Positions 24,689 through 25,759 of a stretch of 64,000 bases of DNA are shown here, piece by piece. Origin of the DNA: Escherichia phage vB_Eco_T-01; sequence record PQ438391.1. One strand, 5' to 3'. A model generated the notes under the pieces. It was not told where the DNA came from. It did no database searches and saw nothing but the letters and a program-made list of their open reading frames with translations. Each line of letters starts with the position of its first letter. The first letter of the stretch is position 1. Both the position numbers and the translations under genes were made by a program.

Positions 24689-25231
24689 ATGAGTGAGGCG
24701 AAACGATTAGTATTAGAAGTTAGTTCACTTTTTGGTGAATTGGCTATAGAAAAAGTAAATAATATGTATCGTTTGACACAAGAAGACGATATGCTATATT
24801 TTACGCCTAACGAAATTGTTCGTTTAACCCAAATTGAAAATTCTTATACTGATAAAATTGTAAGCATTAATGATGAGCATAAAATTCATTTCTATTCTTT
24901 ATGCCCAGGATTTAATATTGAAAGCGAGTCAATATGCTTATCAATTAATAATTGGGATAATTTTATAACTAAGATTAAATATTTTTATTATTCTAATGAA
25001 AGAAAACATAGTTTAAAATGGTTTAAAAATTGCAATGCTATTATTACTAACGCTTGCAATCAGAATGATGAAACTGTTTTAAACGTATCAAAATGTTATG
25101 AAGATGGAGATGTCTTAACTATTCGTCAAATTGATGATTTTCGATCGCATATTGTCACATTTACCAAAGACGAAGCTATTGCACTAAAGACTTATCTTGA
25201 TTCTGTTATTCCAACTATGATTTCAAAGTGA
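24689..25231 (+). CDS. hypothetical protein, paralog A
   Basis: About 180 aa; shares central and C-terminal motifs with the next ORF (EAIALKTYLDSVIPTM versus EAEAMIKYLTTVTPSM). Confidence 0.5.
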   Translation: MSEAKRLVLEVSSLFGELAIEKVNNMYRLTQEDDMLYFTPNEIVRLTQIENSYTDKIVSINDEHKIHFYSLCPGFNIESESICLSINNWDNFITKIKYFYYSNERKHSLKWFKNCNAIITNACNQNDETVLNVSKCYEDGDVLTIRQIDDFRSHIVTFTKDEAIALKTYLDSVIPTMISK

Positions 25232-25237
25232 GGAAAT

Positions 25238-25759
25238 ATGTTTATTTCAAGTGAAAGCGGTTTAATTCGTGTTGAATTTAAAAATGACATCTTTCTTAGT
25301 CAAGGAGATGATATTATTAAAATGAGTTATGACGAAATCAAGAAAATTTGTCATACTCTTGAAAGCCGTGGAAAAGTAAATGCTGTTATTGACATCGGTG
25401 ATTTATGGGTAACACTTTATGAAGTATCCGAAGGATTTAACATTGAAGATGAAAATAACATTTTAGCTATTGATAAAAGAAGTGATTTGTTTGATGTATT
25501 AAAAGTTTATGAACAGTCAAATGGCGGAAGAAAAGCTGTATTGATTTATCAAAAACCGCATTCATGTGGAACTGCTTCAATCATTTCAAATATTGAAGAT
25601 GAAACTGATACTTATATGTGTGTTTTAAAAGCTGGTGGTGACCGTCATCCGGATTTTATTTCTATTCGTCAAAACAATGGAGAAATTTCATTATCAAAAT
25701 CAGAAGCTGAAGCGATGATTAAGTATTTAACAACCGTTACGCCTTCAATGAAAGGATAA
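25238..25759 (+). CDS. hypothetical protein, paralog B
   Basis: 173 aa; paralogous to the preceding ORF. Confidence 0.5.
   Translation: MFISSESGLIRVEFKNDIFLSQGDDIIKMSYDEIKKICHTLESRGKVNAVIDIGDLWVTLYEVSEGFNIEDENNILAIDKRSDLFDVLKVYEQSNGGRKAVLIYQKPHSCGTASIISNIEDETDTYMCVLKAGGDRHPDFISIRQNNGEISLSKSEAEAMIKYLTTVTPSMKG

Follow-up and report, generated by a model that had tools for sequence, protein, structure and literature searches.

Two adjacent genes in a 64,000-nucleotide stretch of Escherichia phage vB_Eco_T-01 (sequence record PQ438391.1; hereafter the window, which belongs to a Tequatrovirus, that is T4-like, genome) encode members of one catalogued, uncharacterised phage family, as sequence comparison confirmed. 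Both lie on the plus strand, upstream of a membrane-protein gene (ORF3) and nrdC.11. ORF1 (24689-25231; 180 amino acids (aa) from an ATG, or 181 aa from a GTG at 24686) is the homologue of T4 MobD.1 (Y05I), and ORF2 (25238-25759; 173 aa), which older annotation calls RB32ORF097c, is a second family member. Membership was already known from Pfam and PHROG and the finding is in this sense largely ordinary. Judging from their relationships, ORF1 and ORF2 are two old lineages of the family that stand side by side in Tequatrovirus.

An initial annotation, made from the DNA letters, had described the two genes as diverged tandem paralogues in the variable rI-nrdC block, and BLASTP, Pfam and the gene map all supported that description for this T4-like phage, whose tk/rI-nrdC block is plastic. 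Both reading frames are present where it had placed them, and in a single BLASTP comparison the two proteins were similar end to end (27% identity and 52% positives over 176 columns, near full length, E=1e-12). The central motif that they were said to have in common is genuine, with six of nine residues identical when the sequences are compared directly. The common C-terminal motif is genuine as well; to call the C-termini near-identical was an overstatement, as 8 of 16 residues are the same.

ORF1 and ORF2 carry the same two Pfam domains in N-then-C order, each above the curated gathering score. T4_y05I_N (PF24449; cut-off 24.9) matches residues 7-103 of ORF1 (nt 24707-24997; E=6.7e-41, 139.4 bits) and residues 2-95 of ORF2 (nt 25241-25522; E=2.3e-33, 115.2 bits), and T4_y05I_C (PF24448; cut-off 27) matches residues 108-177 of ORF1 (nt 25010-25219; E=9.6e-21, 74.4 bits) and residues 102-171 of ORF2 (nt 25541-25750; E=4.3e-23, 81.9 bits). 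PHROG 1502 was also hit by both (E=1.3e-80 for ORF1 and 3.5e-67 for ORF2), and NCBIfam holds no family for either. The most conserved motifs of the family are G-F/G-N-I-E-x-E and [ST]K-x-EA-x-A[LM]-x-x-YL-x-x-V-x-P[ST]M. T4 MobD.1 (Y05I_BPT4; PF24449 and PF24448; PHROG 1502) is the orthologue of ORF1, at 88% identity; ORF2 resembles it in domains, length and motifs, and differs in its low identity to any MobD.1 (27-30%) and in being absent from T4, where mobD occupies its place. In the annotation of phage PP01, ORF1 is named MobD.1 and both ORF2 and ORF3 are 'hypothetical'. No third family copy was found when the six-frame translation of the 64-kb window was scanned with the family hidden Markov model (HMM), and in full-text literature searches no paper on the function of y05I or mobD.1 came up, mobD.1 appearing only as a landmark in a review of T4 mobile elements.

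Distribution, age and selection of the pair

The family is small. Word-indexed searches reached few distant relatives. An exhaustive HMMER search of 1.84 billion cluster representatives, with a profile made from 13 members, yielded no more than 28 proteins at E<=0.001; some form a small number of full-length clusters, others are fragments, and about 12 are stand-alone C-domain proteins (67-87 aa). All the members from this search whose genomic context was examined lie in T4-like phage loci. Within a phage collection, MobD.1-type genes occurred in 729 records and fell into classes by identity: at least 80% in Tequatrovirus, ~50% for a second allele class, ~47% in Mosigvirus and ~33% in Dhakavirus. 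ORF2 was found at 80% identity or more in 433 records, and the survey of presence and absence across T4-like phages established the pair as the common Tequatrovirus state, with T4 lacking ORF2. Mosigvirus and Dhakavirus have one full-length gene each; at the corresponding position, Tegunavirus and a Klebsiella phage carry nothing larger than C-domain-sized genes.

In a neighbour-joining tree, built on short sequences and without support values, ORF2 and P0010 (57% identical to ORF2) were placed outside the whole set of MobD.1 orthologues. The identity of ORF2 to the MobD.1 proteins of Tequatro-, Mosig- and Dhakavirus is 27-30%, and that among these MobD.1 proteins 32-52%; by both tree and identities ORF1 and ORF2 are not each other's closest relatives. 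P0010, a protein of the ORF2 type, is the sole family member on its T4-like contig. This placement of ORF2 relative to the MobD.1 proteins of three genera, together with the lone P0010 gene, speaks against a recent local duplication, and the term 'tandem duplicated', if taken to mean a local and fairly recent event, is not supported.

The diversifying selection that had been suggested for the two genes was not seen gene-wide either. Ratios of nonsynonymous to synonymous substitution rates (dN/dS) were calculated by the Nei-Gojobori method, gene-wide and per domain, on orthologues taken from 12-13 loci of Tequatrovirus, with 11 unique sequences for each gene. They came to 0.21-0.22 for MobD.1, 0.16-0.19 for ORF2 and 0.18 for ORF3, with 0.09 for nrdC.11, 0.06 for nrdC.10 and 0.03 for tk; the separate domains of MobD.1 and ORF2 gave 0.14-0.23. 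Both paralogues are thus under purifying selection at the gene-wide and domain level, somewhat relaxed compared with tk or nrdC.10.

A tandem duplication whose copies diverge fast in an arms race could nevertheless account for adjacent paralogues in a plastic accessory region, for dN/dS values above those of the core neighbours, and for the variability of MobD.1, which in Tequatroviruses is the most variable protein of the neighbourhood (85-91% identity vs 95-100% for most neighbours) and has the second allele class at ~50%. We consider this highly improbable, given the purifying values overall and per domain, the constancy of ORF2 (protein identity of 95-99% in 385 of 481 phage records), and its position outside the MobD.1 clade of three genera together with its lone occurrence elsewhere. 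Moreover, the ~50% allele of phage RB27 is 71% identical to a Mosigvirus allele, which points to allele exchange between genera and not to rapid divergence in situ. This RB27 allele (locus L010, 3498-4040; the Mosigvirus allele is that of Shf125875, locus L012, 3498-4028) is 52% identical to the MobD.1 of the window, and its C-terminal ~25 residues (…IVTFTKDEAIALKTYLDSVIPTMISK) are identical to those of the window. Such a mosaic pattern suggests inter-genus recombination within MobD.1.

Turnover of the locus

In phages T4, RB6 and F25, an HNH homing-endonuclease gene, mobD, lies between mobD.1 and nrdC.11. By blastn, homology between the window and T4 (locus L003, NC_000866 52000-61000) covers 22149-25256 and starts again at 26219; the plus-strand segment replaced by the mobD cassette in these phages is 25257-26218, from codon 7 of ORF2 to the end of ORF3, and reaches precisely to where nrdC.11 starts. 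After mobD.1, T4 keeps the first 19 nt of ORF2 (ATGTTTATTTCAAGTG; 25238-25256 in the window). The mobD gene was found in 47 records, all at least 99% identical, vs 433 for ORF2. Because mobD records are few and near-identical and T4 retains this stub, we regard the pair and ORF3 as ancestral in Tequatrovirus and the single MobD.1 of T4 as derived, the mobD cassette having taken the place of ORF2 and ORF3. The target of MobD is listed as unknown in a review (PMC2988022), and the arrangement suggests that its homing site is in or next to ORF2/ORF3.

Phage T2 shows decay. In two independent T2 records (L004 and L019), mobD.1, ORF2 and ORF3 are all frameshifted and the flanking mobD.2a and nrdC.11 are intact, the three genes having decayed together as a unit. 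Sequencing error is an unlikely explanation, the same fragments being found in both records. Truncated or split copies were also present in ECO4, JEP6 and fPS-90.

Rare chimeras have arisen by deletion. In P0011 (six metagenomic contigs and one isolate, Shigella phage SP21535), ORF1 residues up to ~127 are fused to the last ~50 of ORF2. When the breakpoints of this chimera (locus L005) were compared with the parental loci by blastn, they were placed at a 10-nt word, GATGAAACTG, that occurs on the plus strand once in ORF1 (25067-25076) and once in ORF2 (25598-25607); P0011 evidently arose by an in-frame 531-nt deletion through recombination between the two copies. In P0044 (metagenomic, 210 aa), MobD.1 residues 1-50 are fused to the C-terminal half of NrdC.11, which implies a deletion of ~2 kb that removed the rest of mobD.1, ORF2, ORF3 and the N-terminal catalytic part of NrdC.11. 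The nrdC.11-mobD.3 fragment has also been lost from a viable genome-reduced T4 (PMC9825161). Altogether, the diversity of the locus, as read from these sequences, is one of allele replacement by recombination, cassette replacement by a homing endonuclease, deletion and frameshift decay.

Predicted fold and function

ORF2 was modelled by AlphaFold2 with a mean predicted local distance difference test score (pLDDT) of 85.6 and five concordant models (28-sequence alignment), and ORF1 with a pLDDT of ~90 for residues 10-100 (13 sequences). In these predicted models, the N-domain has a bbbba-linker-bbbba topology (b, strand; a, helix), the PC4-like type I fold of two bbbba repeats that is also the PUR fold; the C-domain of ORF2 is modelled as five strands and a helix. 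The top structural matches, Pur-alpha, PBF-2 p24, StWhy2 and MRP1/2, are all binders of single-stranded DNA or RNA, and the same fold was matched in proteins without a known nucleic-acid role (SsgA and the DUF4176 secretion chaperones). Most hits of a fold search in BFVD were family members; the others were Bacillus-phage proteins, themselves uncharacterised, in which the N-domain fold recurs, and none pointed to a function. At the sequence level, the Pfam PurA and Whirly models did not match ORF1 or ORF2 at E<=1, and a search of PDB sequences with the family profile found nothing significant (the best hit, AcrIIC5 at E=0.15, was disregarded).

The C-domain is related to the first of the two N-domain repeats. 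For this comparison, the family alignment was cut into blocks that were aligned by hhalign, with the reversed alignment and 30 column shuffles as controls. Repeat I matched the C-domain at E=5.7e-8 (2.3e-7 when only stand-alone C-domain proteins were used), compared with 0.43 for the reversed alignment and at least 0.039 for all 30 shuffles; repeat II had no significant match to either repeat I or the C-domain (hhalign E 0.1-0.2). The pattern common to repeat I and the C-domain is h-x-h-x-Q-x-(D/G)-D-h-x-h-(S/T)-x-x-E-h-x-x-h-x-x-(Y)L. In the Pfam scan, residues 16-42 of ORF2 also matched DUF7189 weakly (E=2.5e-5, below its cut-off), a family of ~55-70-aa proteins whose genes immediately precede those of y05I type in other T4-like contigs, and the stand-alone single-repeat genes (67-87 aa) fill the same genomic slot as the pair. 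From the models and alignments we interpret the family as built of three related repeats of PC4/PUR type, of which I and II would form one intramolecular domain and III would stand alone.

Lone PC4-like repeats complete their fold by dimerising, and Pur-alpha is the only protein known with both arrangements (PMC7549692): its PUR repeats I-II make a type I PC4-like domain and its repeat III an intermolecular type II domain. ORF1 and ORF2 differ from Pur-alpha in having no Pfam PurA similarity, in being acidic and in lacking conserved basic residues in the N-domain, and the C-repeat model of ORF2 differs in its five strands. Close systems with a single dimerising PC4-like repeat are Borrelia Bpur, the PC4 C-terminal domain, the phage T5 PC4-like protein and YdbC. 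From the Whirly-type proteins (PBF-2 p24/WHY, StWhy2, MRP1/MRP2 and ChmC), the two phage proteins are set apart by the absence of a Whirly sequence match and of a conserved basic surface. SsgA/SsgB-like proteins have a Whirly-like fold and no known nucleic-acid role; they belong to an actinomycete cell-division lineage and have no third repeat, so the likeness is an analogy and not membership.

Acidity runs through the whole family. The isoelectric point (pI) is 4.1-5.8 in 27 of the 28 aligned members and the net charge of full-length proteins runs from -3 to -22. Among nine diverse full-length members, the conserved columns of the N-domain include 10 acidic, 5 aromatic and no basic positions, and the C-domain contains one conserved Lys (K154 in ORF2 numbering) among few conserved basic positions. 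In ChmC, a phage Whirly-fold protein, RNA binding depends on Lys/Arg clusters (PMC11077065).

ORF3 (25762-26223, plus strand) encodes a small membrane protein of 153 aa (RB69ORF104c / RB32ORF096c family, PHROG 944) that has two or three hydrophobic stretches (~residues 25-60 and 62-98) and ends in a basic tail (pI 9.6). It is followed by nrdC.11 (26220-27233, plus strand), the last gene of the predicted transcription unit, whose product is a Pol-beta-type nucleotidyltransferase of the RlaP family (PF10127; E=2.6e-11, 44.1 bits, cut-off 23; PHROG 388). Bacterial RlaP enzymes add 1-2 nucleotides to damaged RNA 3' ends (bioRxiv 10.64898/2025.12.29.696909). A gene bearing the y05I C-domain was directly upstream of the ORF3 homologue, with nrdC.11 downstream, in 20 of the 20 ORF3-carrying Straboviridae loci examined, and it could be full-length, chimeric or a stand-alone C-repeat; L031, L033 and Klebsiella phage Roth67 have two tandem single-repeat genes there. 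The syntenic position of y05I-type genes in T4-like phages, between the small genes on the mobD.2 side and nrdC.11, was likewise confirmed. The y05I C-repeat, the membrane protein and NrdC.11 (RlaP) are in this light a candidate functional module.

The ORF3 family comprises 904 phage records, including 136 Klebsiella phages. One homologue, 28% identical, is encoded by a 354-kb Eneladusvirus, the jumbo Yersinia phage fHe-Yen9-04 (L038, 329009-329488). Two strict couplings were considered and rejected. MobD.1 does not strictly depend on ORF2/ORF3, as T4-type phages keep it intact without either, and the ORF3 allele is not strictly tied to the adjacent C-domain, as the chimera has an ORF2-type C-terminus next to an ORF3 of only 59% identity.

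For function, the reading that we lean towards, tentatively and at less than an even chance, is that of a dimerising acidic adaptor of PUR/Whirly type that works with the neighbouring membrane protein and/or NrdC.11. The proteins would be homo- or heterodimers joined via repeat III, an arrangement proposed because lone PC4-like repeats normally pair (as do Pur-alpha repeat III, Borrelia Bpur and PC4); paralogues also combine in the MRP1/MRP2 heterotetramer (PMC11077065). The acidic scaffold would then bind a basic protein partner rather than nucleic acid directly, either the basic tail of ORF3 or a host nucleic-acid-binding protein, and the whole, linked to NrdC.11, would be an accessory or host-interaction module that the phage can do without. 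We prefer protein binding because the N-domain has many conserved acidic residues and no conserved basic ones, because ChmC needs Lys/Arg clusters and because the fold also occurs without a nucleic-acid role; a protein-binding or adaptor role, possibly by nucleic-acid mimicry, ranks on this basis slightly above direct nucleic-acid binding. An elaborate version is improbable: here the family would be the first Pur-alpha layout in viral or prokaryote-associated proteins, made acidic, and a heterodimer of the paralogues, joined via repeat III, would dock on the ORF3 tail and either control NrdC.11 or mimic nucleic acid against a host defence that targets RNA or DNA, as a so far unrecognised RNA-repair or counter-defence module of T4-like phages.

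Several points weigh against the adaptor. An argument from overall charge, as opposed to a charge map of the surface, is weak, and the C-domain of ORF1 is poorly modelled (pLDDT 45-66). MobD.1 is intact in T4, RB6 and F25, where ORF2 and ORF3 are missing, and phages can dispense with the module, as seen from the frameshifts in all three T2 genes and from the viable reduced T4 that lost nrdC.11-mobD.3. The ORF3 homologue of fHe-Yen9-04 has no y05I neighbour, so the membrane-protein family is broader than the y05I family. Finally, direct RNA or DNA binding would fit equally well with the fold, with a neighbour of RNA-repair type (NrdC.11) and with the Pfam label 'putative transcription factor'. 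It is possible, if on the doubtful side, that these are true single-stranded nucleic-acid-binding proteins of PUR/Whirly type: for example RNA chaperones, presenters of substrate to NrdC.11, or early-acting regulators of transcription or translation. Besides the Pfam label, such a role would agree with the top structural matches, with the phage precedent of ChmC, whose Whirly fold binds RNA (PMC11077065), with the conserved predicted operon shared with NrdC.11, whose bacterial RlaP relatives modify damaged RNA 3' ends, and with the location of the few conserved basic positions, such as K154, in the C-domain. It agrees poorly with an acidic family whose N-domain has 10 conserved acidic columns and no basic one, when ChmC needs Lys/Arg clusters, and with the lack of a Pfam PurA or Whirly match at E<=1. 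It is unlikely that these genes serve no purpose today and persist as filler that is decaying in a hyperplastic region. The frameshifts in the two independent T2 records, the broken copies in ECO4, JEP6 and fPS-90, the deletion chimeras P0011 and P0044, and T4, which lacks ORF2 and ORF3 and from which the fragment could be removed by engineering, would all be expected of filler; intact reading frames under purifying selection in >400 sequenced phages, a position beside the membrane protein and NrdC.11 kept across several genera, tight start/stop spacing and good ribosome-binding sites would not.

Gene neighbourhood and meaning of the pair

Of the 507 phage records that match the 2-kb stretch around the pair, Shigella phage vB_SboM_Phaginator does so at 100% identity and PP01 at 99.5%. 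Genes on the plus strand follow the order tk, rI.1, rI, rI.-1, mobD.5 to mobD.2, ORF1, ORF2, ORF3, nrdC.11 and nrdC.10. Ahead of mobD.2, a consensus scan found a promoter-like site of sigma-70 type with an extended -10 (24525-24553, plus strand; TTTACA-17-TATAGT, 10/12 matches, with a TG upstream of the -10), which we take to be a putative T4 promoter of the early type. The small mobD.2 reading frame (24582-24689, plus strand; PP01 annotation mapped to the window) ends in a TGA that overlaps the ATG of ORF1 (TGATG). Directly after nrdC.11 comes an intrinsic-terminator-like hairpin with a T-run (hairpin 27235-27254, whole site 27235-27264, plus strand); the other nearby plus-strand hairpin of this kind, at 23679-23696, follows rI.-1, and no terminator-like site was found on that strand between 23696 and 27235. 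Because of these promoter-like and terminator-like sites, mobD.2, ORF1, ORF2, ORF3 and nrdC.11 are predicted to form one transcription unit, and the pair to sit in an early operon, mobD.2-MobD.1-ORF2-membrane protein-NrdC.11. The genes are tightly packed, with GAGGA-type ribosome-binding sites ahead of ORF1 and ORF2 and an ORF3 stop that overlaps the nrdC.11 start. The best sigma-70 match of the region lies inside ORF1 (24773-24800, plus strand; TTGACA-16-TATATT, 11/12, with TG) and could be due to chance or be an internal promoter for the downstream genes.

The surroundings of the pair vary between phages. At the mobD.2/mobD.1 junction (~24689), many Tequatroviruses have two extra genes, one for a 61-aa DUF7438 protein and one for an 88-aa 'Phage_tudor' protein (PF24144); they are present in L013, L014, L016-L018 and L005-L007 and missing in the window and in T4, a polymorphism at the 5' edge of the pair. 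DUF7438 (PF24219) is common to several small genes around tk and upstream of the pair (tk.1, tk.2, mobD.4, mobD.3 and mobD.2a), which make up a second, larger array of tandem paralogues (23922-24521 and the tk.1/tk.2 region; also L005-L007, with the extra 61-aa gene in some phages). On the 3' side, a 123-aa reading frame (27181-27552, plus strand) spans the region between nrdC.11 and nrdC.10 and crosses the predicted terminator (see also 27553-27609), and the annotated start of nrdC.10 differs between records, being extended upstream to overlap nrdC.11 in Phaginator and shorter in PP01. The labels that many GenBank records give, 'molybdopterin-guanine dinucleotide biosynthesis protein MobD' for MobD.x proteins and 'thioredoxin' for nrdC.x, are unsupported by sequence and were propagated from gene-name look-alikes.

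The pair itself is a minor finding, as the family is already in Pfam and PHROGs and is present in hundreds of sequenced T4-like phages. What it adds is that the reference phage T4 is atypical at this locus, where the mobD cassette has overwritten ORF2 and the membrane-protein gene, and the 19-nt stub left in T4 narrows where the target site of MobD should be sought. The N- and C-domains, which can be read as three PUR/PC4-type repeats in the predicted models, offer a structural hypothesis in which the proteins would dimerise via the lone repeat. As strict neighbours, NrdC.11, the membrane protein and the y05I C-repeat make up a candidate module that may serve RNA repair or counter-defence.

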